64,000 bases of DNA from an uncultured Sphingopyxis sp. (GTDB lineage: Bacteria > Pseudomonadota > Alphaproteobacteria > Sphingomonadales > Sphingomonadaceae), in assembly GCA_964502035.1 (NCBI GenBank), contig CAZCUW010000004.1:21171-85170 (forward strand). The letters are read 5' to 3'. A program made the position numbers and the translations under genes. Below, piece after piece: positions 5,560 to 29,500 of this stretch; position 1 is the stretch's first letter, and every line of letters starts with the position of its first letter. Under the pieces are notes generated by a model, which ran no database searches, was not told where the DNA came from, and saw only the letters and a list, made by a program, of their open reading frames with translations.

Positions 5560-8500
5560 TTACGGCCCCTCGGTCGGCGTCCACAGATCGTCGTTGCCTG
5601 CGCCGGTTACCGGATCGTCGAGCAAAGGTTCGCCGCTCAGCGGATCGAGGCCGCGCATCGTGATCAGCGGTACCGGCAAGCTCTGGCCGCTGCCGTCTTC
5701 ATCCTCGGCATCGGCCTCTTCCTCGATGACGTCCTGGACCGGGAAGCTGTTTTCCAGACCCACGAACGCGCAGCTTGCGGCACTGGCGATGACGCAGCCG
5801 TTGAAGGTCGAACGCGGGTCAAAGCTGCCCGCCGACGGTGCCGACCCACCGATGGTGAGCAGCGGGATGGTGTCGAGCCCGGTTACCTGGCCGGTTGCGC
5901 CAAGCTGAACCCCGTTGATGACGATCCGTGACGGGCCGTTGGTGACCACGTCGATCCCGCCCGCGCCAAAGGTGAGCCCGCGGCGGCTGGCGAAATCGGT
6001 CCCGGCGCCGCTGTTCTGGACATAGAAGCCGCCGACGACTTCGGCGCGGATACCGCGTGCGAACAGCGATCCTTCGTCGATGACGATCCCGTCGTTCTGC
6101 GCAAGGCGCGCCTCGATCGCGTCAGTGGTCGTCGCGGTGCCAACGTCGCCGATCGCGGCGGTGGTGGCGACGATGATGTCGTCGGACACCATGTTGAGCC
6201 GTCCGGCCGCGTTGGTGCCGTTGACCAGCCGCACCGTGCCCTGGCCCAAAATGACCTCGAGCGCGTCGTCGGCGAACAGGTTGAGCGCATTGGTGTCGGA
6301 CAGGCCGGTCAGCTGGACATTGCCGATCACTCGCATCTTGCCGGGGGTGCGAATGGTCAGCGCGCCATTGGCGCCAAGGTTCGACCCCGCGGCGCCCCCC
6401 GCAAGCGTGAAGCTGTCGACGATGATGTCGGGCGGCGTCGTGCTGCCGACCGAGGTGTCCCGAACCGCCTGGACATCGGGCGCGAAAATTTCGATGCTGG
6501 TGCCGAACAGGCGCGTCAGTTCGCTGGCATCGATATGGAAGCCAGCGCGCGTCCCGGTGCCGCCGACGAAGGTCTGGCTGAACACGTCGTTATTTTCGAT
6601 CGACAGCGTTTCGGTACTGCCCGCGGTGCCGACGCGCGCGCCGCTGGCGATGATGATGTCGTTCGATTCGAGTGCGATATTGCGCGCGGTGAGCACGCCG
6701 TTCACGACAATATCGCCCGTCGATATGATGTCGGCGGCGTTCGCGGCCAGTGCGGAAATGATGATGTCATTGCCGTTCCGCGACGTCAGCGCGGCGCGGC
6801 CCGCGACGACGCTGGAGGTGATCGTCAGCGTCCCCGATCCGTTGGTCACCACCGCGTCGCCGACATCGGCGTCGAGGACGGCAAAGACGATGTCGCCGCC
6901 GGTATCCAGGTCGATGCTGTTGCCGGTCACGGTGACCGGCCCGACCGAAATCAGGCCGTCGGAGGTCACCGCGCCGTTGCTGGCATTGAGCATTGTCGCG
7001 CCGCCCGCCTGAATGTTGGTGGCGTTGACGCCGTTCGTGCCGGTTAGCGTCAACGGACCCGTACCGGTGGTCTGGGCGCGGACGATGTCAATGCGCCCAC
7101 CGGTCAGGGTCAGGTCGCCCCCGGCGCGAACACGGCCGCCGATGATGGCGCCCGCGGTGACGAGCGACAGGTTGCCGCCCGCGTCGAGGGTGTTGATGAA
7201 CGCGCCGCCCGGGCTGGCGAGCGTCGCCAGATCGGCCGCCGCCGCGGTGATCGCTATATTGCGGCCCGCCGTCACGGTGCCTGTGGCGGCGAGGGTGCCG
7301 GTTGCTGTGACCAGCACATCGGTGAAGCTATTGATCCCCGCGAGCGTAGTGTCGCCGCCCTGGGTGCGAATATCGCTGCTGCCGCCTGTTACCCCCTGGC
7401 CCAGCGTCGTCGCGCCGTTGATCGCGAGGGCGCCGGTTGTGGTGACCAGAATATCGTCGGCGGCCGACAGGGTCGAGGCGGCGATGGCGCCGCCCGCGGT
7501 CAGGAAGACGTCGGCGCCATTGGTCGCCGAGACGCCTTCGCCCTGGCTGATCGTGAAGCCGTTGCCCGCCAGATAGCCGAGGGTGGCGGTGTCGGCGCCG
7601 GTTCCAGTCGCGCTGACGCCGGTGGCGGTCAGGGCGCCGACCGCGCGCACCTCGACATCGTCGCCCGCGGTCACGCCGCTGAGCGTGGCGTTGGTCCCGG
7701 CGATGACGAGCATGTCCTCACCCGCGCTGGCGCCGGTCAGCGTCGCCGACCCGCCTGCATTGACCCCGAACATCCGCGCCGCGGCGCTGTTGGTCAGCGC
7801 GGCATCGCCTGCCGCTTCGACAAACACATTGCCCTGGGTCGCGCCGCCGTTGAAATCGACATAGCCGCCATTCGCCGTCGCCGATGCGGTGATGTTGGCG
7901 TTCGAATTCAACCGGACGTCGCCGCCCGCGACAAAGGTGCCGGTCAGGTCGCCATCGGCGAAAATCGAGATAGTCCCCGCCACGTTTGTCTGGTTCACCG
8001 CCACCGGGCCGCCAAGGCCAAAGGCGAACAAGGACGCATCGCCGGTAACGGCGCCAGTCAGCCCAATGCTGTCACCGAAAACGGTAATGTCGCCGCCTGC
8101 CGCGATGTTGGTTCCGGTGATCGCGTTGGCGGCGGACAGGTTGACCGTGCTGCCTGCATCGATTGCAGCAAAGGCGATGCTGTCGCCGTTGATGCTGGTC
8201 GCCTGCCCCGACCGCAGGGTGCCGGTGGTCGTCACCGCACCCGAAGCGGTCAGCGTCAGATTGTCGAAGGCATTGATGTTGCCGCCGCCGATATTGCCCG
8301 CCGAAGCGGTCAGCACGATGTTCGACAAATCGGGCGGCGATGCGTTGATCTGGAAGCCGCTGACGCCCGTGGGGCTGACCGGCAGATAGGTCAGTGTCGC
8401 GGAGTCGGGCCCGGCCCCGGTGGCGGTCAGGCCATTGGCGATGATCCCGCCCGCCGCGATCGCCGTCAGATCATCGCCCGCGGTCAGGTTGGTCAGCGTC

Positions 8501-11500
8501 GCGGTCGTGCCCGCCAGCACCAATATGTCTTCGCCGGCGTTGATGCCGCTGAGCGACACCGATCCGCCGGCGTTGACGCCGAACATGCCCGTCGCACTGC
8601 TGTTGGCGAGGGTGACGTTGCCGACCGCATCGGCGAACACGCTGGCTGCGATCGGCGGCCCGCTGCTCGAACTTTCAAATCCGGTGGCGTTGGCCGACGC
8701 GTTGATGTTGGCGCCCGACCGCAGCCGGACATTGCCCACCGCATTATAGGTGCCGGTGATGTCGCCGGAGGCCGAGACCGCGATATCGTCGCCGATGTTC
8801 GCCAGATTGATCCCCACCGGCCCGGCGCTGCCGATCGCAAACAGCGACGATGCGCCGGTGATCGTGCCGGTGATCGCAATGCGCGTCGCGGTCAGGTTGA
8901 CGTTGCCCCCCGCATCGATCGATCCGCCGTTGACCCCGTCGGCGCCTGCGACATTGCCGCTCGCGGTCAGCGATACCGTCGCGCCGGCGTCGATGTTGTT
9001 GAACAGGATCGACTGGCCAGTGACCTGAACAAAGCCGCCCGCGCTCGAATTGCCCAGATCGACGGCGCCGGGCGAAGTGACGATGATGTTGCCGCCGGTG
9101 ATGATCGAATTGAGCCCGGTGCGGAAACTGGCGGCGCTGGCGATGAAATCATTGACCGCTTCGGCATGTTCGACCGATGCCGCGCCAGCGGCGGTGATCA
9201 GGATGTCATTGGCATTCAGGCGATCGACCCCGATCGCGCCGAGCGTCGAGGTGAGCGCCAGTGTGGCGCCCGCGCCCAGCAGGCTGCCCGGCGCGCCGCT
9301 GATGCTGCCCGCGCTCGCGGTCAGATTGCCGCCCGCCGCGATCGTCGGGGCGATGCCTTCGCGATTGTCGTGGCGGATATCGATCTGGTCGCCCGCATCG
9401 ATGGTCAGGTTGCTGCCGACGCTGACGGTGCCGTTCGACTGGGCATAGGCGCCGAACGAGCTGTCGGTGGTCAGCGTCATGTTGCCGGTGGTCGCGATTG
9501 TGCCGCCGGTGGCGCCAAAAAAGATACCTGCCGGGGCCACGTCGGTGTCGTTGTTGGTCGGCGGTGCGTCACCCAGGGCTTCGGCGGCGAGGCTGGTCAT
9601 CCGGACCGCGCCATCGCCCGAGGTGCGGATTTCTATTCGCCCGGCGAAATTGCCATTGGCGGCAACCGTCGTCACCCCCAGGTTGACCAGCGCGGCCGTC
9701 TCCACCCCTGCCGCTTCGATCAGCGCCAGCCCGCCGGTGGTTTGCAGCACGGCGCCCGCCGCGCCGTTGCCGCTGGTCCCCGTGCCGCCCGCGCCGCCGG
9801 TGCCCGCAATGCCGCCCGCCGTGATGCTGACCGGGCTGCCGCTCGAGGTGATCGTGCCGCCATTGGCAAACAGGCGCACCGTGCCGCCGGTCGCCGCCCC
9901 GCCATCGCCGCCGTCGCCGCCGATGAATCCGGCGCCAAAGCCATTGAACGCGCCTTCGCCGCCGTTCCCGCCGCTGCCGTCGCTGCCGAGCGAAACAAGC
10001 CCGCCGGCATCCGAATCGAGGAAGATGGTGGCGCCGCCGCTGGCCAGAATTTCCAGCGTGCCGCCGCTGCCCGATCCGCCGCTGCCGCCCGCCGCGCCGA
10101 CGGTTTCGGCGCCGAAAAAGGACGATCCGGCGCTGCCGCCATTGCCGCCGGTGCCGCCGGTCTGGAAATTGGCCTGGCTGAGCGTGGCGCGCCCGTCGGC
10201 GCCGGTCGCGTGGATCCGGCCGGTGCCGCCGGTTCCGTTGCCGCCGTCGCCGCCCGCGCCATTGTTGCCGAACGCACCATCGCCGCCGCGCGCCGAGGCA
10301 TCGACATTCACGAACAGCGGATCGGCGCTGAAATCGGTGACGATGATCTGCGCCAGCCCGCCGATCGCGTTGCCGCCGCTGCCGCCGATCAGGCCAAAGC
10401 CGCCATTGCCGCCTTGGGCCGCGGCGGTGCTGGTCACGGTGCCCGTCGCGTTGACCGGCACCGCCAGGTCGAGCGTTGCGGTGCCGCCCTGGCCGTTACC
10501 GCCGCTGCCACCGATGCCGATGCCGGTGACCGATCCCGAACTGCTGGAGGCAAACACATTGCCGCCGGTGCCGCCAAAGCCCCCCGCGCCGGCAATCAGG
10601 TCGCCGGTGTTGAGCGTTCCCGATAGCATTTCGATCGCCGCGGTGCCGCCCTGGCCGTTGCCGCCGAGGCCGCCCGCGTCGGCAATGCCGCCAAAGGCGC
10701 TGAAATTGCCGCCGGCGCCGCCGCGACCTTCGGCATAAGCGGCGACGGCGCCGGTCGCGGTGATCGTCGCCCCGTCGATCACGATCGACGCGCTGCCGCC
10801 GACGCCGGTGCCGCCCGGGCCGCCGGGAATGATGTTAGCCGCATTGTCGTCGCTGCCGTCGGGGCCGCGGCCGCCGATGCCGGTTGCCGACACCGTGACC
10901 GAGCCGCTGTTCAGTGCGCCGCCGCGCAGGTTGATCGTCGCCGTTCCCCCGGTGCCGGTGCCCGCGATGCCGTCGGTCCCGACACCTGCTTCGGCATCGG
11001 CGGCGACCGACAGATCACCAAGCTGCACTGCGCCACCGGTCATCGTGAAGGATGCGGTCCCCGCGGTGCTGCTGCCTGTCGTCGCGTCGATCTGGCCCCC
11101 GGCCAGAACCGCCAGCATGCCGCCGGTCAGCAACTGGCCGCCGCTGACATTCATCGCGGCGTTGCCGCCTGCACCATTGGCGCCGCCCGACGCCAACGTC
11201 AGATTGCCGGTCGCGCCGATGACCTGCCCGGCGCCAAGGTTGAACGTCGCGCTGGCGTCGCCGATGAACAGGCCGTCGCCCTGGACGACGAGACGGCCCA
11301 GATGCGGCGGCGGCACAAAGCTCGACGGCCCGCCCGTCGGCACCTGAAGCAAGGGCTGGCCGAGCAGCGCGCCGCTGGCGCGCGCGACGGTGTTGCTGCG
11401 AAACAAGGTGTCGTTGATCGTGATATTGGCAGCGGTGGCGCTCGCCAGGGTGCCGTCCAGTTCGCCATTGAAAATATTGTAGCCCGCCGACAGGCGCACC

Positions 11501-12498
11501 GCGCCGTCGGCGTCGGTCTGGGCCGATACGGCATCGTCATAACCGACCGACCCCGACACCAGCATCGTGACCGCGTCATTTTTGGGAATGGCGACCATAT
11601 AGATGCGGCTCTGGTCGACATCGCCCTGTTCGTGCGCCGGACCCGTCGTGCTGCCGCTGTGGGTGATGACGTTGCCGCCCTCGGCCCCGACCAGCACATT
11701 GATGTCGAACAGGCCGCTGTTGATGCGGATGTCGGTCTGTTCGGCGGCGACATAGGCCGCCGAGCCATCGACGCGCACGGCGCCCGCTTGGACGATGCGC
11801 GGCGCAACAACCGCGACATAGCTGCTGCCCGGATTGAACGCATTGTCGGCGTTGATCGCCGCACCGTTCGCGATGGTGACCGGCGCGATATTGCCCGACG
11901 CGCCGCGAAAGCGGATTTCGCCTGCCGGACCCAGCAGGCCGCCGGTCGTGATGACGTCGTTGGTGGTCAGCACCAGGCTGCCGACGTTGATCGCGGCGCC
12001 ATTGCCGATCAGGATGCCGCCGGCGTTATAGAACCAGATATGGCCATTTTGCAGCGTCGGCAGGCCTGCGATCGACACGACGCTGTTCACCGTCCCGTTC
12101 AGCGCGATCTGGTCCGCGATCGGGGTGCCCGACGCCGCGATAAAGCGGTTGAGCACGATGTAGTCGACGGTGTTGCCGACAAAATTGAGGGTGTTTCCCG
12201 TCGGCAGAAAATCGACGATGCCGCCGACGGGCGCATTGGACGGCGTCCAGTCGATGATGCTTTGCGGTCCGTTCACATTGACCGTCGACGGGTTCACGCC
12301 GGTACCGGTCGTCGTCCCGGCGGGCAGGGTGGTGATCGTCCCCGACCCCGCCACCTGCGCCAGCGCCGGTCCGCCATAGGCCAGCGCCATCATGCCCGCG
12401 CCGATCGCGCAGCCGGTCAGCAGGCGCCGTTTGCCGTGGTGGTCGGGCGCGGAGGTGGCGGTGGCACGCATGGCGTTGGTCCTCGATACGAAAATCAT
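5560..12498 (-). CDS. two-partner-secretion exoprotein (TpsA), filamentous-haemagglutinin-like, ~2312 aa
   Basis: It has an N-terminal signal peptide (..GMMALAYGGPALAQV). A TPS/haemagglutination-activity-like domain follows (SIIDWTPSN..VDF..YIVLNRF..WFYNAGGILIGNGAAINVGSLVLTT). The remainder is long G/A/T/N/V-rich beta-helix-like repeats. The start is set at MIFVS (ATG at 12498), which overlaps the tpsB stop as TGATG. Confidence 0.85.
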   Translation of the reverse strand: MIFVSRTNAMRATATSAPDHHGKRRLLTGCAIGAGMMALAYGGPALAQVAGSGTITTLPAGTTTGTGVNPSTVNVNGPQSIIDWTPSNAPVGGIVDFLPTGNTLNFVGNTVDYIVLNRFIAASGTPIADQIALNGTVNSVVSIAGLPTLQNGHIWFYNAGGILIGNGAAINVGSLVLTTNDVITTGGLLGPAGEIRFRGASGNIAPVTIANGAAINADNAFNPGSSYVAVVAPRIVQAGAVRVDGSAAYVAAEQTDIRINSGLFDINVLVGAEGGNVITHSGSTTGPAHEQGDVDQSRIYMVAIPKNDAVTMLVSGSVGYDDAVSAQTDADGAVRLSAGYNIFNGELDGTLASATAANITINDTLFRSNTVARASGALLGQPLLQVPTGGPSSFVPPPHLGRLVVQGDGLFIGDASATFNLGAGQVIGATGNLTLASGGANGAGGNAAMNVSGGQLLTGGMLAVLAGGQIDATTGSSTAGTASFTMTGGAVQLGDLSVAADAEAGVGTDGIAGTGTGGTATINLRGGALNSGSVTVSATGIGGRGPDGSDDNAANIIPGGPGGTGVGGSASIVIDGATITATGAVAAYAEGRGGAGGNFSAFGGIADAGGLGGNGQGGTAAIEMLSGTLNTGDLIAGAGGFGGTGGNVFASSSSGSVTGIGIGGSGGNGQGGTATLDLAVPVNATGTVTSTAAAQGGNGGFGLIGGSGGNAIGGLAQIIVTDFSADPLFVNVDASARGGDGAFGNNGAGGDGGNGTGGTGRIHATGADGRATLSQANFQTGGTGGNGGSAGSSFFGAETVGAAGGSGGSGSGGTLEILASGGATIFLDSDAGGLVSLGSDGSGGNGGEGAFNGFGAGFIGGDGGDGGAATGGTVRLFANGGTITSSGSPVSITAGGIAGTGGAGGTGTSGNGAAGAVLQTTGGLALIEAAGVETAALVNLGVTTVAANGNFAGRIEIRTSGDGAVRMTSLAAEALGDAPPTNNDTDVAPAGIFFGATGGTIATTGNMTLTTDSSFGAYAQSNGTVSVGSNLTIDAGDQIDIRHDNREGIAPTIAAGGNLTASAGSISGAPGSLLGAGATLALTSTLGAIGVDRLNANDILITAAGAASVEHAEAVNDFIASAASFRTGLNSIITGGNIIVTSPGAVDLGNSSAGGFVQVTGQSILFNNIDAGATVSLTASGNVAGADGVNGGSIDAGGNVNLTATRIAITGTITGASSLFAIGSAGPVGINLANIGDDIAVSASGDITGTYNAVGNVRLRSGANINASANATGFESSSSGPPIAASVFADAVGNVTLANSSATGMFGVNAGGSVSLSGINAGEDILVLAGTTATLTNLTAGDDLTAIAAGGIIANGLTATGAGPDSATLTYLPVSPTGVSGFQINASPPDLSNIVLTASAGNIGGGNINAFDNLTLTASGAVTTTGTLRSGQATSINGDSIAFAAIDAGSTVNLSAANAITGTNIAAGGDITVFGDSIGLTGAVTGDASLFAFGLGGPVAVNQTNVAGTISIFADGDLTGTFVAGGDVRLNSNANITASATANGGYVDFNGGATQGNVFVEAAGDAALTNSAAARMFGVNAGGSATLTGASAGEDMLVIAGTNATLSGVTAGDDVEVRAVGALTATGVSATGTGADTATLGYLAGNGFTISQGEGVSATNGADVFLTAGGAIAASTLSAADDILVTTTGALAINGATTLGQGVTGGSSDIRTQGGDTTLAGINSFTDVLVTATGTLAATGTVTAGRNIAITAAAADLATLASPGGAFINTLDAGGNLSLVTAGAIIGGRVRAGGDLTLTGGRIDIVRAQTTGTGPLTLTGTNGVNATNIQAGGATMLNASNGAVTSDGLISVGPVTVTGNSIDLDTGGDIVFAVLDADVGDAVVTNGSGTLTITSSVVAGRAALTSRNGNDIIISALAANAADIISTGDIVVNGVLTARNIALESNDIIIASGARVGTAGSTETLSIENNDVFSQTFVGGTGTRAGFHIDASELTRLFGTSIEIFAPDVQAVRDTSVGSTTPPDIIVDSFTLAGGAAGSNLGANGALTIRTPGKMRVIGNVQLTGLSDTNALNLFADDALEVILGQGTVRLVNGTNAAGRLNMVSDDIIVATTAAIGDVGTATTTDAIEARLAQNDGIVIDEGSLFARGIRAEVVGGFYVQNSGAGTDFASRRGLTFGAGGIDVVTNGPSRIVINGVQLGATGQVTGLDTIPLLTIGGSAPSAGSFDPRSTFNGCVIASAASCAFVGLENSFPVQDVIEEEADAEDEDGSGQSLPVPLITMRGLDPLSGEPLLDDPVTGAGNDDLWTPTEGP

Positions 12499-14324
12499 CA
12501 GCGCGCCTTCACGCCGAATTGGGTGGTCAGCGACACCAGCAGTCGCGGGTCGGGCTTTTGGGTCAGGAAGCCGCCGCGGTTCAGCGGCACCGCCATCGTC
12601 ACGTCGAGCCGCGCGACATCGCCATATGCGACGCGCATCCCGCCGCCCGCCGAATAGAGTTTCTGGGGGTTCAGGCCGTCGAACGCGCTGTCCTTGTTCC
12701 ACACCCACGCCGCATCGAAAAAGGCAAAGGGCTGGAGCGCGAACGCTTTGGTATTGGCGGGGACGAACGAGCCGTAGCGCGCCTCGAGTGCGACGCCGAC
12801 GCCGCTGTCGCCGATGATCGTGCCGGGGTCGAAGCCGCGCCCGACGGTAAAATTGCCGCCCGAAAATTCTTCATAGGCGAGCAGCGGGTCGCTCGCCCAT
12901 TGCGCGCGCGGCGCGGCGGACAGGGTGAACAATTTGTGCGGCCGCCATTCGGCGAGCGCGTTGGCGCGCAGCAGGAACGCATCGGGTTTGCCCTCGACGC
13001 GGGTCAGCGGCACCGCGCCGGGCAGGAAACAGGTCGCCCCGGCGGGGCCGCAATCGTCGCTGGCGCCCAGGAAGCTGGCGCCCTGCCGCGCTTCGAGCGA
13101 GGTCGATAGCGCCCAGCGCGGTTCGCTGGGGCTGAACCCCCCGCGCCCCGCCACCGAGCCCGGATCGATCCAGTTGGCGTCGGCGCGCAGGTTGAAGACG
13201 CGCAGGCGGTCGCGGTTGATCGGTACGCCGCCGAGGCCGATGTCCTGATCGATCAGGTCGAGCCCGCCACCGATGGTCAGGCGGCGCACCTGGGTCAGCG
13301 TCAGCGGATAGGACGCGAAAAGGCTGGCGATCTGGGTTTTCGACTTGATCGGAAAGGCGGCAATGTCGGGGCGCGTCCACGCATAGGTATAGCTGGCGCC
13401 AAAGCGCAGCCCTTCGCCGCCGACGCGGAACTCGTGCGCCAGCTGGACGACCTGTTGCTCGTCGAAATCGGGGGTCGAGTAAAAGCTGGCGGTGGTGAGG
13501 TCGCCCATGCCGGTCAGCCCGGCAAAGCGCACGCGCGCAACGCCGCCCCAGCGCCCGACGTCGCGCGAGCCGAAATTCTGCGCGTTGAAGTCGAACAAGA
13601 CCGGGGTGCGCGCCACCAGCACTTCGCCGACGACTTCGCCCGGCGCAGCGCCGGGGCGCAGGGTCAGCCGCGCGTCGAGCCCGGGGATGTCGCGCGCCAG
13701 CAGCAGATAGCGTTCGGCCCGGGCGATGTTGAACACCGGCTGGTCGTCGAGCCGCGACAGATAGCGTTGCAGCAGCGGTTCGTTGGCGCCGGCATCGCCG
13801 CGCACCTCGACCCGCGCCATCCGCGCCGCCAAAATGTCGAACCGCACGACGCCGTCGGCGATCGTTTGCGGGGGCACCCGGACCGCCGCCAGATAGCCTT
13901 TGGCGCGCAGCATCGTCGCGGCGCGGTCGCGAATGTCGCAGACGACCGAAATCGGCAGATCCTGTCCGACCTTGTCCGACCAGCTCGGCGCCAGCACCGC
14001 CGTGTCGATGCCCTCGACGCGCGAAAATTCGACCCCGCGCAGCGTGATGCGGACGGTTGCAAATTCGGGGTTGGCGAGCGGGCAGGGTGCGCGCTCGATG
14101 GCATCGTCGGCCGATACGACCCGCTCATTGGGTGGGGTCACCGGGGCCAGCGTCGGTTGCTGAATTTCCTCACGCGTGGGGATCTGCGGGGTCGCCTGGG
14201 CCAGCGCCGCCGCGGGCAAAGCGGCAGCGATCAACGCCGCCGAACCACACAACCTGTCCCGAAGGGCGGCGCGTTTCGGCCGAACCCGCGCATAAACTCC
14301 CTGAACCCCCGTGATCATCACCAC
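12498..14324 (-). CDS. ShlB/FhaC/HecB-family TpsB outer-membrane transporter
   Basis: The 608-aa protein has a signal peptide (AALIAAALPAAALAQA) and a POTRA-like N-terminal region (VRITLRGVEFSRVEG, VRFDILAARMARVEVRG). The C-terminal half is beta-barrel-like. It lies immediately upstream of, and overlapping, a TPS-domain gene. Confidence 0.85.
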   Translation of the reverse strand: MVMITGVQGVYARVRPKRAALRDRLCGSAALIAAALPAAALAQATPQIPTREEIQQPTLAPVTPPNERVVSADDAIERAPCPLANPEFATVRITLRGVEFSRVEGIDTAVLAPSWSDKVGQDLPISVVCDIRDRAATMLRAKGYLAAVRVPPQTIADGVVRFDILAARMARVEVRGDAGANEPLLQRYLSRLDDQPVFNIARAERYLLLARDIPGLDARLTLRPGAAPGEVVGEVLVARTPVLFDFNAQNFGSRDVGRWGGVARVRFAGLTGMGDLTTASFYSTPDFDEQQVVQLAHEFRVGGEGLRFGASYTYAWTRPDIAAFPIKSKTQIASLFASYPLTLTQVRRLTIGGGLDLIDQDIGLGGVPINRDRLRVFNLRADANWIDPGSVAGRGGFSPSEPRWALSTSLEARQGASFLGASDDCGPAGATCFLPGAVPLTRVEGKPDAFLLRANALAEWRPHKLFTLSAAPRAQWASDPLLAYEEFSGGNFTVGRGFDPGTIIGDSGVGVALEARYGSFVPANTKAFALQPFAFFDAAWVWNKDSAFDGLNPQKLYSAGGGMRVAYGDVARLDVTMAVPLNRGGFLTQKPDPRLLVSLTTQFGVKAR

Positions 14325-14450
14325 CCCTTGTGTACGAACGCAGCCGCGAAATCGCGGTGCGGCAATTCATCAGGCCCTGCCAAACACCGGCAGCGCGAAT
14401 TTTTCGACCCAAGGAAAGGTTCTGCCGACGGATCGGCAGATTTTCTTCTT

Positions 14451-14502: not shown

Positions 14503-15261
14503 TTATCCCGCCTCGCCTTCCGACATTGCATCGACCAGGCGATTGAGCTGCGGTATGCAGCCCTTGGCCATCAGCATATCGACCGATCCCTCGATGGTAT
14601 CAGGGGCATTTCCCAGCGGCGTGAAGCGCACCTTGACCGGCGCGGGCAAGCCGCCGCCGGACAGGCGATAGTCGACGCCATATTGGACCGGCAAAGTATC
14701 GGTCGGCCATTTGCGGAAATTGGCGCCGTCGACAATCGCGACGGTCGTTTTTTTGCCGGCGCTTTCGATTTCCAGCGCGGTGTCGCCTTCCATGTTCGGA
14801 CGCCACAGCATCAGCGTTGCCGGATCGGCAACGCAGAAGGTCCCGGCTTCGCGATAGTCGAGCAGCCACAAATTGGGCGCGCGGATGTCGATGGGCGCCG
14901 GGTCGTTCGGACCGCGCGAAAACCCGCCGCGTGACCGCATTGTCGGCCCCTTGGCCAGCATCCGTGTCACCGTGCCGCCCATCGACTGGCTGGCCTGGAT
15001 CGTGCCGCTGGCGCCAAAGGTGCCGGGGCCGGACAGGGTGCGGGTCTTGCCCGCCTGCATCAGCACGACCTTGTCGCCCGCGACCAGGGTCAGCTTGTCG
15101 GCCGATTTCAGCTTGGCGCCGGTCGGATATTTGCTCGCCGACGGTCCGGTCGAGCGGACGACCATCGATTGCGCGGCGGCGGTGCCGACGACGGCGACCG
15201 CCATGACGGCAGCGGCGGCGGCAAGGCTCAGGCGGCGCTTCGGCAGATCAGGAAAGGACAT
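14503..15261 (-). CDS. secreted hypothetical protein (weak FecR-like N-half; C-half of unknown family)
   Basis: The 252-aa protein has a signal peptide (LSLAAAAAVMAVAVVGTAAAQ). Its start overlaps the cyclase stop by 14 nt. The segment GAKLKSADKLTLVAGDKVVLMQAGKTRTLSGPGTF loosely resembles FecR-type beta-sandwich sensors. Confidence 0.6.
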   Translation of the reverse strand: MSFPDLPKRRLSLAAAAAVMAVAVVGTAAAQSMVVRSTGPSASKYPTGAKLKSADKLTLVAGDKVVLMQAGKTRTLSGPGTFGASGTIQASQSMGGTVTRMLAKGPTMRSRGGFSRGPNDPAPIDIRAPNLWLLDYREAGTFCVADPATLMLWRPNMEGDTALEIESAGKKTTVAIVDGANFRKWPTDTLPVQYGVDYRLSGGGLPAPVKVRFTPLGNAPDTIEGSVDMLMAKGCIPQLNRLVDAMSEGEAG

Positions 15262-17335
15262 AGCTTTCTCCTTTTTCGGTATTGTTCAGACGGTCTATCA
15301 GAAACATGATGGCTGGATCCTGACCGAATTCGCGCGCCAGTGCTGTGGCGCCCGTCACATAGGTGCCGGTATCGCCCGCGGCGTGCGCCGCGACAAGCGC
15401 CGCGATGCGGGCGCGCCGTTCTGGGTCAAGGTCGGGGCGCGGCGTAAACACGTCGACCGGCTGAGCGCGGCCACGCAATGTCACGCGCCCCATCGGCATC
15501 AGGTCGTCGCGGCCCGATCGCGCCGCGGCCTCGGCCGAGATCAGCACGCCGGTTTTCAGGCTCTTGTTCGCCGCTTCGAGCCGCGAGGCGGTGTTCATGC
15601 TGTCGCCCAGCGCGGTATATTGGATGCGGCCTTCGCCGCCGAAATTGCCGACGATCGCGTCACCGACGTGCAGCCCGACGCGGGTCATGCCGAGCGGCGG
15701 GACGCCGTCGGCCAGGTCGACGCGGAATTTCTCGCCCGCCTCATACATCGCGAGCGCCGCCGCGGCGGCGCGCGGGCCATCGTCGGGGCGGTGGAGCGGT
15801 GCGCCCCAAAAGGCGACGATGGCATCGCCGACAAATTTGTCGATCGTCCCGCCATGGTCGAGCACGATGTCGGACAAGCGATCGAGATAGGCGTTGAGCA
15901 GACGCGCGACGGTTTCCGGGGTCACCGCATGACTGAGCTTGGTAAAGCCTTCGAGGTCGGTGAAGACGCAGAAGATGTTCCGCCGTTCGCCGTGCAGCGA
16001 CAGCTGGTCGGGATCGCGCATGATCTGCGCCGCGACGTCGGCGGGCAGATATTTGCCGAGCGCCGATTGGGCAAAGGCGCGCTGGCGCGACCCGATGGTG
16101 CGCGCCGCGGTGCCGACCGCCGCATAACCAAACAACCAGCCGATCGCCCAGCCAAAGGTGGGCAGGGTGGTGGTGTCGACGCCGCGGCCTTGCAACCAGA
16201 AAGGGAAGGCGATGAAAAACGCCATCTGCCCCAGGAACGCAAGCGCCACCCATCGGGCGCGCAAGTCGATCAGGCTGGTCAGCCCGCCCGCGAGCACGAT
16301 CAGGACGGCGAGTATCCACAGCACCGGCGCCGACAGCGGGCGCGACCAGCCATTGTCGAGCTGTTGCGCCAGCATATGGGCGTGAACCTCCAGCCCGATC
16401 ATCGTTTCATGCTGGCCGGTGATCGGATCGGTAAAGCGGCTCAATGGTGTGTTGAACTGGTCGTTGTCGATGATGTCGCCGCCGATCAGGACGTAGCGAT
16501 CCTTCACCAGCTCCGAAAAGCCTGCGCGCATATCGGCGTCCATCGGCATGGCAAAGGTGTCGATCGGGATGTTGGCAAAGACCGGTTCTTCCTGTCCCGC
16601 GGCGGCGCGCGCGGGCACGAGGAAGCGGATATTGCCCTGGAAATTGGCGTGCGCCGGGTCGACTGGCGCCATGGCGTTGGACATCAACGGCGGCAAATTT
16701 TTTGGCCGGTCGGGCCAGTTGCGGATCACGCTGTCGTCGTCGGTGCGGAACAGCACACTGGTGGGTTTCGTCTTGTCGGTCGCGACCGCGGCGATGAAGG
16801 CTTCGAGAAATTTCTGCTGTTCGTAAAAGATCGTGTTCGGATTGCTCGCCTGCTCGGCATAGGCGAGCCAGGTCGGCGTCCTCATCGCACGCAGCTGGGT
16901 TTTCAGCACCTCGTCGTCGGGGCGCGGCGAATCAAAGGCAATATCGATGCCGATCGCCTTCGCCCCCATCTGGTCGATATTGCCGAGCGCATTGGCGAGC
17001 AGGGTGCGGTCGAGCGGCGAGCGGATGCGGGTGTTGAACAAGGTTTCGTCATTATAGGTGACCAGGACGATGCGTTTATCCTGTTCGACATGCGGCGCCA
17101 TGAGCGTCGCGCGGGCATCGTACAGCGCGCGCTCGGCGGCATCGATCAGCGGCATCTGCCAGCTGAAGCGCGCGATCAGGACCGCGACGATCAGGAACAG
17201 AATCGTTGCCGCCATCCGCGACGGGCCAAGCTGCATGACCAGCCGGCGTACCTGCTTGCGCAGCGGCACCGCGGGCCGCTGACCGTCCGGCGCGGAGGTT
17301 CCGACCGCGGGCGTGCTGGTGTCGGGGGCGGTCAT
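15248..17335 (-). CDS. CHASE2 sensor domain-containing class III adenylate/guanylate cyclase
   Basis: It has an N-terminal TM helix and a CHASE2-like periplasmic region (RIVLVTYNDETL..SPLDRTLLANALGNIDQMGAKAIGIDIAFDSP). Three TM helices follow. The cyclase catalytic domain carries FTDLEGFT, KFVGDAI and LGDSMNTASRLE. The start is MTAPD (ATG at 17335), with an alternative upstream start at 17398. Confidence 0.85.
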   Translation of the reverse strand: MTAPDTSTPAVGTSAPDGQRPAVPLRKQVRRLVMQLGPSRMAATILFLIVAVLIARFSWQMPLIDAAERALYDARATLMAPHVEQDKRIVLVTYNDETLFNTRIRSPLDRTLLANALGNIDQMGAKAIGIDIAFDSPRPDDEVLKTQLRAMRTPTWLAYAEQASNPNTIFYEQQKFLEAFIAAVATDKTKPTSVLFRTDDDSVIRNWPDRPKNLPPLMSNAMAPVDPAHANFQGNIRFLVPARAAAGQEEPVFANIPIDTFAMPMDADMRAGFSELVKDRYVLIGGDIIDNDQFNTPLSRFTDPITGQHETMIGLEVHAHMLAQQLDNGWSRPLSAPVLWILAVLIVLAGGLTSLIDLRARWVALAFLGQMAFFIAFPFWLQGRGVDTTTLPTFGWAIGWLFGYAAVGTAARTIGSRQRAFAQSALGKYLPADVAAQIMRDPDQLSLHGERRNIFCVFTDLEGFTKLSHAVTPETVARLLNAYLDRLSDIVLDHGGTIDKFVGDAIVAFWGAPLHRPDDGPRAAAAALAMYEAGEKFRVDLADGVPPLGMTRVGLHVGDAIVGNFGGEGRIQYTALGDSMNTASRLEAANKSLKTGVLISAEAAARSGRDDLMPMGRVTLRGRAQPVDVFTPRPDLDPERRARIAALVAAHAAGDTGTYVTGATALAREFGQDPAIMFLIDRLNNTEKGESYVLS

Positions 17336-17339
17336 CGGA

Positions 17340-20300
17340 TCAGCGGGCAGCGCGGCCGGCACCTTCCGGGGCGGGTGTGGTCGGCGCGAGTGCAGCATCG
17401 GCGGTGGCCGCGCCGCTGTGCAGCAGCGGCTGGCCGCCGTCGCCGATGATCGCGAACCCGGCCCAATAATAGGGGTGCGACGTTTGCTGGTCGTCCATCA
17501 GCCGCATTTGCGTTCCCCACATTGCATCGGCGACGCTGGTGCCCTGACCGGCGGCGAACAGTCCACCGATCAGCCGCTTGGTCGCATCGAAATCGTCGGG
17601 GGCGGGCCAGTGGCTGGCGATCACCGAGCGTCCCCCGGCGCCGATGAAGCTACGCACCAGCCCGTCGAGCGCGTTGCCGCCGCCCGACAGCCCGGCTTCG
17701 CGCGTTGCCGCGACCGACGCCGCGCCCGCGGTGTCGCACGCCGACAGGATGACCAGATCAGCGTTGATCTTGAGGTCGAAGATTTCCTGAAAGGTCAAAA
17801 GCCCGTCCGAATCGCCGCCCCCGAACGAGGTGACCAGCGCCGGCCGCGCCGGGCAGGCGGGGCGCGGCGCGGTGACGAGCCCGTGGGTCGCAAAATGAAT
17901 GATGCGATAGTCGTTGAGGTCGGTGCGGTTCTTGACCGCGCTGTCGGTGAACGCCCCGCCGGTGAGCAGCGTCGCGGCGTCGCCGCCCATCGCATTGCGC
18001 GCGGTAACCAGCTCGTCGGCGGAAATCGGCCGCGCCCATTGCGACACGTCCCACTGGCAGTCGCCGTCAACGCTGGCGCCCGCTGCGCCGCGGGTGCCGA
18101 GCGAAGGCAACGTCGTGCCATTGATCGGCAGGTTTTGGCCCAGCCCGAAATATTGATTGGCGGCTTTTGACGGCGGCGCCTGCCGCGCGTTGCGGAAGGC
18201 GAGGGTCGATACCGCGGTGCTGGGCCGCGTCGTGCGCCCGAGCCAGGCGACCTGGCGCATGTCGAACGGATCGGCGTCGGGATCGAGCAGCCGCTGTTCA
18301 TAGGCCGCAAGGCCGGTGTCGGCGGTGACCAGCAGGTTGATCGGCAGCCGCAGCATGGCGCCGTCGGGTTCGAAAATCAGATGCGCGACCGATGGCAGCT
18401 TGGCCGCAACCGGGCCGAACAGCTGGCCATAGAGTTTGTAAGCGGTCGCGGCGTCGAAGGGGTAGGTAACGCGGCGCCCGTTTTCGACGATCGAGATCGT
18501 CGAGCGCAGCGTATCGACCGCGGTGTCGAGCGCCGCGGCGCCGATGTCCGATTTCCACAGCTGGGCGCCGCCCGGCTCGATCAGCATCGCATAGACGGCG
18601 TCGCCGACGACGAGCATCTTCAGATAGGCCTCGTCGGGGCGCAGCACTTGTTGCAGTTCGGCGAGGTCGAGCTTGCCCGGCGCGACAACGCGATATTGCG
18701 GAAACGCCGACAGCCGGGCGATCGATTCGGCCTGCTGGAACGCCAGATTGTCGAGCTGGGTTTTCAAATCGGCGCGCAGCGCGCCCACTTCGGGCGATTC
18801 CGGCAATTGCGCCAGCCGGGCATCCTCGATCCGCGCGCGTTCGATGTCGCGGTTAAGCGTCGTTGCCTGACGAAACAGTCGCGCGCCGTCGTCGCTGCCG
18901 CTCGACAATTCGCGCGCCAGCACCGCCTGGGTGTCGGCGACGCCGGGGCGGACCTGCAACTGGCTGGCGACAAAGAAGTCGCCGACCGCGGCCGGATCGG
19001 TCGCGGCGCGGCTGGCGAGCAGCCGGTAATAGGGCGCCATCATGTTGGCCATGCCGGTCGTCGAGCGCTGCGAATTGGCCAGCGCGGCGACGACCTCGCG
19101 ATAGATGGCCAGCGCTTTGTCGTCCTGGCCATGGCGGGTCAGGAAGGCGGCGTAGCGTGCGCGCGCCGAGGCGAGCGCGTTGGTTTCGGGATATTCGATC
19201 GCGAGCGCGTTCACCGAGTCCAGAAAACGCGCATCGGCGGCGGCGCTGTCGCCCAGCGCCTCTTCGGCAAGGGCGAGTTCGCCCAGCATCTGCGAGCGCA
19301 GCCGCACGATCGAGGTGACACGGCCTTCGCGCACCGCGACCGCATCGGCCAGGCCTTTGAGCTGTGCCGCCTTGGCCGTGGCGCCATTGCCGCGCAGCCG
19401 TTCGACGGTGCCGAGCAGGTGGACCGCCTGGGCATCGATGATCTGGCCGCGTTCGATCGGGGTCAGCCGTTCACGGTCCGACCCTTGCTGGACGGCGCGG
19501 GCGTTGCTGCCGCTGTTCACCCCGGCGACGATCGTCGGGGTCAAGGTGACGCTGGCCCCGTCGACGGTGACCGCGCTGGTCAACGGCGGGATCGCCCGCT
19601 GCAACAGTTCGGCGGCGGCGTCGTAATCGCGCTGGTTCAGCGCATGGATGGCGCGGAAGTTGCGGCGCAGGCGCAGTTGGACGGGGTCGCTGGTCGGCAC
19701 TGCCTCGGCCTCGGCAAACAGCCGTTCGGCCTCACCGAACTCGCCGAGGTTCGAGCGTTGCAGCGCGCGGTTCAGGGTGAATTCGGTCGGATCGATGTCG
19801 GCCGCCGCTTGGTCGCCCTGGGTGCGCCGTGACAGGGTTTCGAAAAACTCGGCCGCCTCGGCATAATCGCCGCTGTGGTTGCGCCGATATCCCTCGGCCA
19901 GCGCCTTGTCGACGTCGATCGCCCCGGCGAGCGTCCGGGCGAAGCCGTCGTTGCCGCCGACCGACGTCGTGGCGACCTTGATCACCCCGGGAACCACCTT
20001 GCGCTGACGGATCGAATCGAGCGCGAGGTTGAGCGCGTCGCCATAGGCGGCGAAACCTTCCACGACATAAGCGGTATCGCCGTCACTCTCGATCCGCGTC
20101 TGCCAGACGACGCTGCTGTCCTTGACCGTGCAAGTGCCGTCGGCGGTGCAGGTGACGGTTCCGGCGCGGCCGCGTTCGATCCGAGCCTTCGCGGCGTCGG
20201 GGCCGGCGCGGAGCATGCGGACGTAGCCGACGGGCTGGCTGGTATCGCGGCACAGGATCACCCAGGCGCGGTCGAACATCCCGTCGATGACAGCGTCGCG

Positions 20301-20462
20301 CACCGTCGCCTGCACCGCGCAGAGCGAGCCTCCCTGATCGCCGATCGAAAAGCTGTCACGAAGCGTGGGGTCGGTGCCCTGCGCCTGCGCCTGCGCCGCT
20401 CCGGGCGCTGCACAGGCGAGCGCCGCCAGAATCGGCAGGCAAAACGGACGTCGAACGGTCAT
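17340..20462 (-). CDS. secreted TPR-like repeat / CHAT (caspase-fold) domain protein
   Basis: It has a signal peptide (MTVRRPFCLPILAALACAAPGAAQAQAQ). The middle is long and helical-repeat-like. The C-terminal CHAT domain has the His motif IIHFATHG (His codon 17883-17885) and the Cys motif LVILSACDT (Cys codon 17736-17738). Confidence 0.8.
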   Translation of the reverse strand: MTVRRPFCLPILAALACAAPGAAQAQAQGTDPTLRDSFSIGDQGGSLCAVQATVRDAVIDGMFDRAWVILCRDTSQPVGYVRMLRAGPDAAKARIERGRAGTVTCTADGTCTVKDSSVVWQTRIESDGDTAYVVEGFAAYGDALNLALDSIRQRKVVPGVIKVATTSVGGNDGFARTLAGAIDVDKALAEGYRRNHSGDYAEAAEFFETLSRRTQGDQAAADIDPTEFTLNRALQRSNLGEFGEAERLFAEAEAVPTSDPVQLRLRRNFRAIHALNQRDYDAAAELLQRAIPPLTSAVTVDGASVTLTPTIVAGVNSGSNARAVQQGSDRERLTPIERGQIIDAQAVHLLGTVERLRGNGATAKAAQLKGLADAVAVREGRVTSIVRLRSQMLGELALAEEALGDSAAADARFLDSVNALAIEYPETNALASARARYAAFLTRHGQDDKALAIYREVVAALANSQRSTTGMANMMAPYYRLLASRAATDPAAVGDFFVASQLQVRPGVADTQAVLARELSSGSDDGARLFRQATTLNRDIERARIEDARLAQLPESPEVGALRADLKTQLDNLAFQQAESIARLSAFPQYRVVAPGKLDLAELQQVLRPDEAYLKMLVVGDAVYAMLIEPGGAQLWKSDIGAAALDTAVDTLRSTISIVENGRRVTYPFDAATAYKLYGQLFGPVAAKLPSVAHLIFEPDGAMLRLPINLLVTADTGLAAYEQRLLDPDADPFDMRQVAWLGRTTRPSTAVSTLAFRNARQAPPSKAANQYFGLGQNLPINGTTLPSLGTRGAAGASVDGDCQWDVSQWARPISADELVTARNAMGGDAATLLTGGAFTDSAVKNRTDLNDYRIIHFATHGLVTAPRPACPARPALVTSFGGGDSDGLLTFQEIFDLKINADLVILSACDTAGAASVAATREAGLSGGGNALDGLVRSFIGAGGRSVIASHWPAPDDFDATKRLIGGLFAAGQGTSVADAMWGTQMRLMDDQQTSHPYYWAGFAIIGDGGQPLLHSGAATADAALAPTTPAPEGAGRAAR

Positions 20463-20671
20463 CACCAATCCCCCAAACACAAACCCAGAGGCGCCCCGCC
20501 GATGATATTCCGGCAAGGCCCAGTCTTCATTGCTGCGGTACGACCCATTCCCTGATCGGAACCCTAACCCCTTCGCCCGAAAAAGGGAAGTGATCAGCGG
20601 CACAGGCCGCTTGCACCCATCGGACGCGCAACCTATCTGCAAGGCGACAGTTTCAAACCCATGAGGATGAT

Positions 20672-20998
20672 ATGAGCGGATTCGACGACCGAGAACGCGC
20701 CTTCGAGGCCCAGTTCGCCCGCGATCAGGAAATGCAGTTCCGGATCACCGCGCGCCGTAACCGGCTGGTCGGCGAATGGGCCGCCGAACGCATGGGGCTG
20801 ACTCCCGAGGAAACCGACGCCTATGCCAAAGCGGTGGTGCAGGCCGATTTCGAGGAAGCGGGCGACGAGGACGTCATCCGCAAGCTCGCGGGCGACCTGA
20901 CCGCGGCGCAGGTCGAGATCAGCGACGCCGAAATCCGCGCGGCGCTGAACGACAAGTCGGTCGAGGCACGGCGCCAGTTCATCGACAGCCAGAACTGA
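20672..20998 (+). CDS. DUF1476 protein (alphaproteobacterial F1-ATPase inhibitor zeta-subunit family)
   Basis: The 108-aa protein begins MSGFDDRERAFEAQFARDQEMQFRITARRNRLVGEWAA, which is characteristic of DUF1476. Confidence 0.75.
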   Translation: MSGFDDRERAFEAQFARDQEMQFRITARRNRLVGEWAAERMGLTPEETDAYAKAVVQADFEEAGDEDVIRKLAGDLTAAQVEISDAEIRAALNDKSVEARRQFIDSQN

Positions 20999-29131: not shown

Positions 29132-29500
29132 ATGGCGGAACGAGCAAGCGAATCGGAGATGCAGGTGCTGTCGGCGCTGTGGGACGACGCCCCGCAGACC
29201 GCAGCCGGCCTGACCAACCGCATCGGCAAAACCAATGGCTGGACGCAGGCGACGGTCAAGACCCTGCTCGCGCGGCTGGTTCAGAAGGGCGCGGTGACCG
29301 CCGCCGCCGACGGCCGCCGTTACCTGTATAGCCCCGCGATCGAACGCGCCGACGCCGTCGGTGAGGAATCGCAGCGTTTCGTCGACCGCCTGTTCGGCGG
29401 CCGGGTCAGCCCGCTGATTGCCCATCTCGCCGATCGCGAGGCGCTGACCGACACCGACATCGCCGAGATCGAGGCCCTGCTGCGGAGGCTCAAGTCATGA
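29132..29500 (+). CDS. BlaI/MecI/CopY family transcriptional repressor
   Basis: It has a winged-helix N-terminus (SEMQVLSALWDDAPQTAAGLTNRIGKTNGWTQATVKTLLARLVQKGAV). An AAGGGAGGGG ribosome-binding site precedes the ATG at 29132. The gene overlaps the M56 gene. Confidence 0.85.
   Translation: MAERASESEMQVLSALWDDAPQTAAGLTNRIGKTNGWTQATVKTLLARLVQKGAVTAAADGRRYLYSPAIERADAVGEESQRFVDRLFGGRVSPLIAHLADREALTDTDIAEIEALLRRLKS

Follow-up and report, generated by a model that had tools for sequence, protein, structure and literature searches.

The window, a stretch of 64,000 nucleotides from an uncultured Sphingopyxis sp. (assembly GCA_964502035.1, contig CAZCUW010000004.1), encodes a 1040-aa CHAT protein that is very probably both exported and catalytically competent, as predicted from its sequence. 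Its gene is one of five minus-strand genes in a cluster, the others encoding a CHASE2 sensor fused to a nucleotide cyclase (CHASE2-cyclase), a 252-aa protein (p252), and TpsB and TpsA, the transporter and exoprotein of a two-partner secretion (TPS, type Vb) system. The CHAT protein is quite probably functionally tied to this TPS system. The best reading, given an even chance, is that it is a periplasmic tetratricopeptide repeat (TPR)-CHAT protease that cleaves a retained tail of TpsA and controls TpsA maturation or release. It would then be a soluble, Sec-exported, disulfide-bonded periplasmic cysteine protease serving as the dedicated accessory of one type Vb family.

Fold and export of the CHAT protein

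The gene and the domains of its product are as follows; DdvA is a Myxococcus xanthus protein discussed below.

17340..20462, minus strand: predicted exported TPR-CHAT protease gene (open reading frame (ORF) with a 1040-aa translation, Pfam CHAT)
20382..20462, minus strand: signal peptide, residues 1-27, with the n-region MTVRR, a hydrophobic h-region and an AQA c-region, cleavage being likely after an AQA
20007..20360, minus strand: N-terminal alpha/beta domain, residues 35-152, with invariant C48, C71, C105 and C111 (model and 60-sequence alignment)
18663..19946, minus strand: TPR-like helical solenoid, residues 173-600, with a long hairpin at 525-584 (model secondary structure, profile and Foldseek matches)
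17433..18632, minus strand: CHAT caspase-fold domain, residues 611-1010 (Pfam, model, Foldseek, profile match to DdvA)
17883..17885, minus strand: codon of the predicted catalytic His860 (FATHG), invariant in alignments A1, A2 and A5 and aligned with DdvA H862
17736..17738, minus strand: codon of the predicted catalytic Cys909 (LSACDT), invariant in alignments A1, A2 and A5 and aligned with DdvA C907

The gene starts at the ATG at 20462, with GGGGGA upstream at a 6-nt spacer, and the N-terminus of the protein reads MTVRRPFCLPILAALACAAPGAAQAQAQ. The motif IIHFATHG spans residues 854-861 and LVILSACDT residues 903-911, with CAC as the His860 codon (17883-17885) and TGC as the Cys909 codon (17736-17738). 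Pfam CHAT (PF12770) matches residues 673-1008 over profile positions 3-289 of 289 (E 4.5e-46, 158 bits, cut-off 24), a similarity that in profile-scoring terms is far above chance. A first-pass annotation of this DNA had identified 17340-20462 as a CHAT gene with its His and Cys at these codons, and the coordinates, the translation and the Pfam match bear this out. The protein also contains one TPR_7 repeat, slightly under the Pfam threshold. Its closest homologues (79-94% identical) are all from Sphingopyxis and are named 'CHAT domain-containing protein'. A search of NCBIfam with the CHAT protein returned no family, the PADLOC defence library no match, and a search of the PDB with the full-length sequence no match at E <= 1.

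An AlphaFold2 model of the CHAT protein, built from 108 sequences, has a predicted local distance difference test score (pLDDT) of 83.4 and a predicted template modelling score (pTM) of 0.81. It consists of a disordered signal peptide, an alpha/beta domain, helices, and then the mixed alpha/beta CHAT domain. The N-terminal alpha/beta domain modelled alone reaches pLDDT 92, and comparison with PDB folds gave nothing better than E 0.04. Against the PDB, a full-length family profile matches TPR proteins only, over positions ~290-490, and by Foldseek the solenoid resembles the peptide-binding TPRs of KLC, PEX5 and Rap. The roughly 700 residues before the CHAT domain had been described as helical repeats; this is right for residues 173-600, but residues 35-152 form a separate alpha/beta domain with Cys pairs.

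In the model, His860 and Gly861 lie just after the strand at 852-858, and Cys909 lies at the end of the strand at 903-910, a placement that, as modelled, is the caspase-fold arrangement. H860 and C909 show no substitution even in relatives at only 24-29% identity, and the His, the next Gly and the Cys are invariant or nearly so in ~90 divergent sequences. The top Foldseek match in the PDB is the TPR-CHAT protein Csx29 (7y8t_B, E 1.4e-11); human separase (9hn0_B) follows at E 1.9e-9, and DdvA (8rot_A) at E 2.7e-9 with 16% identity, the highest among the matches. All three have a Foldseek probability of 1.00. A CHAT-domain profile built from 29 divergent relatives has DdvA (8rot_B, E 2.1e-7) as its sole PDB match, and the alignment sets FAtHG against LATHG (H862) and LSACdT against LAACEG (C907) of DdvA. 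Both the retention of a caspase-type His/Cys dyad and the TPR-like/CHAT fold, proposed earlier from the sequence, are thus supported by conservation, structure prediction and fold comparison.

A charged n-region followed by a hydrophobic N-terminal stretch is found in 84 of 89 full-length family representatives, and 26 of these 84 have a lipobox-like Cys. The window protein has a cysteine at residue 17, where close homologues have Leu or some other amino acid. Because Cys17 is not conserved, its candidacy as a lipobox was ruled out and the protein is assigned to the signal-peptidase-I substrates rather than the lipoproteins. Within the c-region (about 20380-20400, minus strand) the window reads AQAQAQ versus AQAQ in close homologues, the 6-nt repeat gcgcag being present in one more copy.

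Export via Sec is favoured. The RRPF of the signal peptide (RR is residues 4-5, 20448-20453, minus strand) bears a faint resemblance to a twin-arginine translocation (Tat) signal, so that export by Tat keeps a small likelihood. The form in Sphingopyxis proteins is RRP[FHQY], with the arginines conserved within the genus and missing from most relatives in other genera, and a twin-arginine-like pattern occurs in only 5 of the 89 full-length representatives. Sec is preferred because the twin arginines are not conserved outside Sphingopyxis.

Six non-catalytic cysteines (C48, C71, C105, C111, C802 and C870) are invariant in a 60-sequence alignment spanning 24-87% identity. The likely disulfide pairs are C48/C71, C105/C111 and C802/C870, of which the first two lie on adjacent strands of the N-terminal domain in the AlphaFold2 model. 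Such conserved pairs are what would be expected of a periplasmic, DsbA-oxidised protein. The first-pass annotation had claimed Sec export: export itself is upheld by the conserved signal peptide, the Cys pairs and the non-coding upstream frame, while Sec is the favoured route, short of a strict distinction from Tat.

It is very improbable that the protein is cytoplasmic, with its true start upstream and the hydrophobic stretch internal. A longer form of the reading frame does open at an in-frame TTG at 20642, 60 codons further upstream, and two database homologues (P0029 and P0032) are annotated with slightly longer N-termini. However, the G+C content at third codon positions (GC3) is 0.67 in the 60 upstream codons versus 0.84 in the CHAT coding sequence, and the upstream frame in the related genome L002 holds several stop codons; because of this drop and these stops, the extension is taken as non-coding. 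Moreover, relatives in other genera begin right at the signal peptide, and a cytoplasmic location would sit poorly with three invariant Cys pairs. The signal peptide accordingly lies at the real N-terminus, as had been thought likely, with no upstream start; the ribosome-binding site before the ATG at 20462 supports this start as well.

Linkage to two-partner secretion genes

The other genes of the cluster, and the conserved segments of TpsA and of the CHAT protein that bear on their relationship, are as follows.

15248..17335, minus strand: CHASE2 sensor fused to a class III nucleotide cyclase, 695 aa, alternative start 17398 (Pfam CHASE2 E 3.4e-26, Guanylate_cyc E 7.6e-16)
14503..15261, minus strand: p252, a 252-aa exported protein (signal peptide, invariant C143/C235 and W153-R154)
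12498..14324, minus strand: TpsB outer-membrane transporter (POTRA_2 E 1.5e-6, ShlB E 2.1e-13, Omp85 E 2.7e-6)
5560..12498, minus strand: giant Gly-rich TpsA exoprotein, 2312 aa (N-terminal profile matches TPS domains)
5770..5802, minus strand: TpsA C-terminal Cys pair NGCVIASAASC, residues 2233-2243 (FN[DG]C-x6-8-C motif)
5563..5640, minus strand: TpsA C-terminal tail motif LSGEPLLDDPVTGAGNDDLWTPTEGP, conserved in TpsA-like proteins beside CHAT genes
17670..17723, minus strand: conserved flexible loop after the predicted catalytic Cys of the CHAT protein, residues 914-931 (...ATREAGLSGGGN...), near-invariant, pLDDT < 50

The window TpsA alone matches TPS models weakly (Pfam TPS E 0.0059, TIGR01901 E 0.003). 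When its N-terminus is combined with those of 16 relatives, the resulting profile matches the TPS domains of EtpA, HxuA and HMW1 (E 9e-22 to 8e-16); Pfam TPS is matched by 8 of the 17 members of this set. TpsB carries VGRGF at residue 494, which we take to be the L6 loop motif, and the tpsA ATG overlaps the tpsB stop codon (TGATG). By these profile comparisons the giant Gly-rich protein is a genuine TpsA, and the neighbours are a real TPS pair.

The CHAT family is large, with 960 matches at E <= 1e-30 among 50%-identity representatives, many of them full-length (about 1000-1080 aa) and 26-56% identical to the window protein. A member of 1021 aa from Sphingomonas antarctica (P0273) bears the NCBI name 'UDP-2,3-diacylglucosamine diphosphatase LpxI', an apparent mislabel. 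Gene neighbourhoods were scanned in one genome per species, giving 80 loci, mostly from Sphingomonadales and also from Caulobacterales, Rhodobacterales, Niveispirillum, a Burkholderiaceae and a Methylomonas. The loci were searched with the window proteins and with hidden Markov models iterated on the loci, and synteny was counted in the 40 loci whose flanks extend for 8 kb or more on each side. Near the CHAT gene, these well-flanked loci contain:

TpsB and/or a giant same-strand TpsA-like gene: 40 of 40
a giant same-strand ORF of at least 900 aa: 38 of 40
TpsB: 35 of 40
a TpsA N-terminus: 26 of 40
p252: 20 of 40
CHASE2-cyclase: 17 of 40

Four of the five TpsB-negative loci have an ORF of 1900-2960 aa that ends at the CHAT start and reaches or nears the edge of the flank; a TpsB gene may therefore lie beyond the fetched sequence. 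There are at least four gene orders among related loci. CHAT-(cyclase-p252)-TpsB-TpsA is the order of the window, TpsB-TpsA-CHAT-(cyclase-p252) and CHAT-TpsB-TpsA each occur in some related loci, and distant relatives have CHAT-p252-cyclase-TpsB or TpsB-CHAT-p252-cyclase. Since the linkage survives this rearrangement, it points to a functional tie between the CHAT protein and the TPS pair. The cyclase/p252 pair is an optional add-on to this module, p252 nearly always accompanying the CHASE2-cyclase in related loci. An earlier argument from the TPS neighbour to extracytoplasmic substrates is strengthened by this conserved synteny.

Most TpsA C-termini from related loci contain the motif FN[DG]C-x6-8-C, and a variable Pro/acidic linker joins this Cys pair to the tail. 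The tail consensus is [LI]xxEPxLD[DE]P[VI][TS][SG][GA]G[DN]xxx[WYF], beyond which only a few variable residues remain. Of 4227 ORFs in the loci, 23 have a simple form of the pattern within their final 70 residues, and 17 of these 23 are the giant neighbour of CHAT, including those in the distant loci L043, L044, L046 and L063. The tail and the Cys pair are conserved and specific to the giant proteins beside CHAT genes, the tail pattern being rare among other ORFs.

The loop that follows the predicted catalytic Cys of the CHAT protein resembles this TpsA tail. Its consensus in relatives is ...ATREAG[VIL][TS][ST]GG[DN][FY]ALDG, the window having LSGGGN. A joint loop/tail pattern is present in 15 of the 80 CHAT ORFs, always 18 residues past the [SA]AC motif, with one further match at an unrelated offset; its background in other ORFs is 3.8e-5 per residue. 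Among the five proteins of the window operon, CHAT has a single copy of a loose form of the motif, at residue 926, and the Gly-rich TpsA has three, the one in its tail among them; the remaining proteins have none. In 15 of the 15 loci where loop and tail both have D/E or N directly behind GG, the two are of the same kind (Asp/Glu or Asn). By analogy with caspases, residues 914-931 sit where the intersubunit linker lies.

Proposed role and its alternatives

In the proposed mechanism, the giant TpsA would be threaded through TpsB N-terminus first, and its C-terminal end, with the Cys pair, the acidic/Pro linker and the tail DDPV[TS][SG][GA]G[DN]xxx[WY], would stay in the periplasm. The TPR part of the CHAT protein would bind this tail, placing DDPVTGAGNDDLW in the TPR groove or the active-site cleft, and the CHAT domain would cut it. 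Whether TpsA undergoes maturation and release or remains on the cell surface would depend on this cut. The window is among the roughly half of the loci that also have the CHASE2-cyclase and p252, which would probably couple the periplasmic event to signalling by cAMP or cGMP. Taken by itself, the proposal that the TpsA tail is the protease substrate falls somewhat short of an even chance.

The loop directly after Cys909 would serve as an autoprocessing site or as a pseudosubstrate sharing the specificity of the enzyme, an attractive but unproven idea prompted by its likeness to the tail. Its logic is drawn from separase, which is controlled by the pseudosubstrate securin and by autocleavage at substrate-like sites. 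A fuller version of the mechanism is tentative and less likely than not: the TpsA tail would be a sorting or cleavage signal that is read by the periplasmic TPR-CHAT enzyme, mimicked by its loop, and reported via the CHASE2-cyclase. Within this version CHAT might act as a protease or, like the clan CD enzymes PorU and GPI8, catalyse a transpeptidation that would attach TpsA to a component of the envelope.

Several observations weigh against cleavage of a retained TpsA tail. The loop/tail regular expression was composed post hoc, when both motifs had already been seen. On the tree, about one switch is enough to explain the D/N agreement of loop and tail, and covariation was therefore dropped as strong evidence. 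TpsB-CHAT pairs stand without TpsA within 10 kb in L021 (7980-12952) and L062 (7955-12379), and TpsA was not detected in the distant loci L064, L076 and L077, which have the order CHAT-p252-cyclase-TpsB. Finally, DdvA, the nearest relative with a solved structure, was caught at rest, and it is not known to cleave any substrate (PMC11506125).

The lack of a nearby TpsA in L021 and L062 also bears on a different role, in which the CHAT protein is itself cargo or a surface partner of TpsB and acts outside the cell as a secreted protease. The TpsB-CHAT pairs of these two loci would suit such a role, as would the finding that TpsB is the most constant identifiable neighbour of CHAT. However, the CHAT protein has no TPS domain, and its N-terminal domain was excluded as a hidden one: it is an alpha/beta fold of about 120 residues rather than a beta-helix, with no match to TPS structures. 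In addition, 26 relatives are lipoprotein-like and would usually face the periplasm, and the L021 genome also holds a complete TpsB-TpsA-CHAT locus (L036). Cargo status is improbable on this balance. The L062 protein itself opens with a lipobox (LALPGC).

Signalling offers another account, in which a periplasmic cue would lead CHAT to cleave p252 or the CHASE2 domain and switch the cyclase, much as anti-sigma factors undergo regulated proteolysis and as has been modelled for DdvA. The reading frames of CHAT, cyclase and p252 are near-contiguous or overlapping in the window, the order CHAT-p252-cyclase recurs in the distant loci L063, L064, L076 and L077, and DdvA, also a periplasmic TPR-CHAT protein, is proposed to act in signalling (PMC11506125). 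Yet the cyclase is missing from 23 and p252 from 20 of the 40 well-flanked loci, all of which have TpsB and/or a giant TpsA-like gene, and the tail-like motif is in neither p252 nor the cyclase; a mainly signalling protease is considered unlikely. It is less probable still that CHAT is a non-catalytic TPR holdase or plug on the periplasmic TpsA tail with a relic dyad. Its TPR region does resemble peptide-binding TPRs, and in DdvA the active site is incomplete in the resting state and dyad mutants have no phenotype (PMC11506125), but a relic would not be expected to keep the His, the next Gly and the Cys (near-)invariant in ~90 divergent sequences. Cleavage of the TpsA tail is thus preferred, at the strength given above.

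Known CHAT systems and the surrounding genes

DdvA is a transmembrane anti-sigma factor of Myxococcus xanthus with a periplasmic TPR-CHAT part whose structure was determined by cryo-electron microscopy (PDB 8rot/8rw5, PMC11506125). An earlier statement that the characterised CHAT proteins are all cytoplasmic is therefore outdated. The Sphingopyxis protein shares with DdvA the periplasmic TPR-CHAT character, the overall size and domain order, and the aligned dyad (H860/C909 with H862/C907). DdvA, however, is joined through a transmembrane helix to a zinc anti-sigma domain in the cytoplasm, and it controls an island with CRISPR and cyclic-oligonucleotide-based anti-phage signalling system (CBASS) genes, whereas the Sphingopyxis protein is soluble with a cleavable signal peptide, has an extra N-terminal domain with Cys pairs, and is linked to TPS genes rather than to a sigma factor. 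The long conserved loop after the catalytic Cys is also absent from DdvA. A DdvA-type anti-sigma role was rejected on the grounds of the cleavable signal peptide at the N-terminus and an operon with no sigma-factor gene.

Csx29, the Craspase protease (PDB 7y8t, 7x8a, 7y84), has the same TPR-then-CHAT layout and provides the best structural matches (E 1.4e-11 to 4e-10). It is a cytoplasmic protein that binds Cas7-11 and has RNA as its activator, and it has no detectable sequence similarity to the Sphingopyxis protein. A type III-E Craspase component was rejected, as there are no cas genes and the flanks are housekeeping. Separase (PDB 9hn0, 5u1t) likewise places helical repeats before a caspase-fold domain but is eukaryotic, cytoplasmic or nuclear, much larger, and directed at different substrates.

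The functional precedent for the proposed role lies in other proteases. The Pseudomonas aeruginosa TpsA adhesin CdrA is released when periplasmic LapG cuts its periplasmic C-terminal tail (PMC5422565), and its C-terminal cysteines are proposed to act as a hook by which CdrA is fastened to CdrB (PMC11898600). The likeness is functional only: LapG is transglutaminase-like and not of the caspase fold, so there is no homology, and domain model scans of the window operon found no LapG-type (transglutaminase-like) or LapD domains. LapD senses cytoplasmic c-di-GMP and works inside-out (PMC4694147), whereas a CHASE2 sensor with cyclase output would work outside-in. Genes for maturation proteases usually lie outside TPS operons (PMC5422565), as lapG lies outside cdrAB, whereas the CHAT protease gene is inside the TPS operon. 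Bordetella FhaB is likewise a giant TpsA, with a C-terminal part that is retained in the cell until SphB1 and other proteases remove it (PMC5422565); SphB1, a subtilisin autotransporter, has its gene at another locus, unlike the CHAT protease, which is encoded with the TPS genes. Gingipains, clostripain and the caspase-like 'releasing peptidases' of polymorphic toxins are also caspase-fold and extracytoplasmic, and they act at processing sites or C-terminal signals of exported proteins (PMC3482391). PorU and GPI8 are of this kind too, but these exported clan CD enzymes belong to other families (C25, C11, C13 and C80). A survey of processing peptidases names only HINT for type V secretion and no caspase-like one (PMC3482391), and literature searches on CHAT with CHASE2, TPS, TpsB or ShlB found no linking paper in the library covered.

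Among CHAT proteases, separase acts in cell-cycle control and Craspase in CRISPR defence, and DdvA has been the sole periplasmic example. An exported CHAT protein is thus already known, and a soluble form with its own signal peptide and an extra N-terminal domain is a variant; the new element is the TPS gene context. Members of this large family are envelope proteins, some soluble and others held by a lipid anchor, and an obvious candidate substrate is encoded alongside. The family gives a handle on what bacterial extracytoplasmic CHAT enzymes cleave, on the maturation and release of giant TpsA proteins with a protease encoded in the operon, and on what CHASE2 sensors respond to, and Sphingopyxis, which is culturable and not pathogenic, is suited to such work. 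If the fuller version of the proposed role is true, it would represent a widespread, undescribed layer of control in type Vb secretion and give CHASE2 its first defined input.

Within the operon, the cyclase ATG lies 4 nt past the CHAT stop codon, and the start of p252 overlaps the cyclase stop by 14 nt. In the PADLOC library the CHASE2-cyclase matches PycC models, which is taken as generic class III cyclase similarity; this was the only match among the other operon proteins, and no cas or defence family was found for CHAT. Pfam returned no family for p252, even via 15 relatives, and a FecR-like identity was not supported by that search. A 178-nt gap separates the p252 gene from tpsB, and the five-gene cluster may comprise two transcription units. 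A GC-rich hairpin, TCTGCCGATCCGTCGGCAGA, lies in this gap at 14421-14440.

The region upstream of the CHAT gene is as follows.

20463..20671, minus strand: intergenic region with operon promoter and 5' leader, divergent from the zeta-inhibitor gene at 20672

The leader (20463-20662, minus strand) has long blocks that are 100% identical to L001 and L002, whose CHAT proteins are 76-84% identical. Its predicted hairpins are GCCGCCTGTGCGGC and CTTCCCTTTTTC...GAAGGGG. A search of the window against Rfam gave no match, the leader hairpins included, and a promoter/terminator scan of the window gave no excess over shuffled expectation.

The flanking genes are housekeeping genes, including cysS, the ATPase inhibitor zeta subunit, glutaredoxin and his genes, and the rest of the window is ordinary chromosome. 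Two other features are unrelated to the CHAT finding: a multi-haem cytochrome c (Cytochrome_C7, Cytochrom_c3_2, paired CXXCH) at 18-1514 on the plus strand, and a BlaR1-type M56 peptidase sensor at 29497-31191 on the plus strand.

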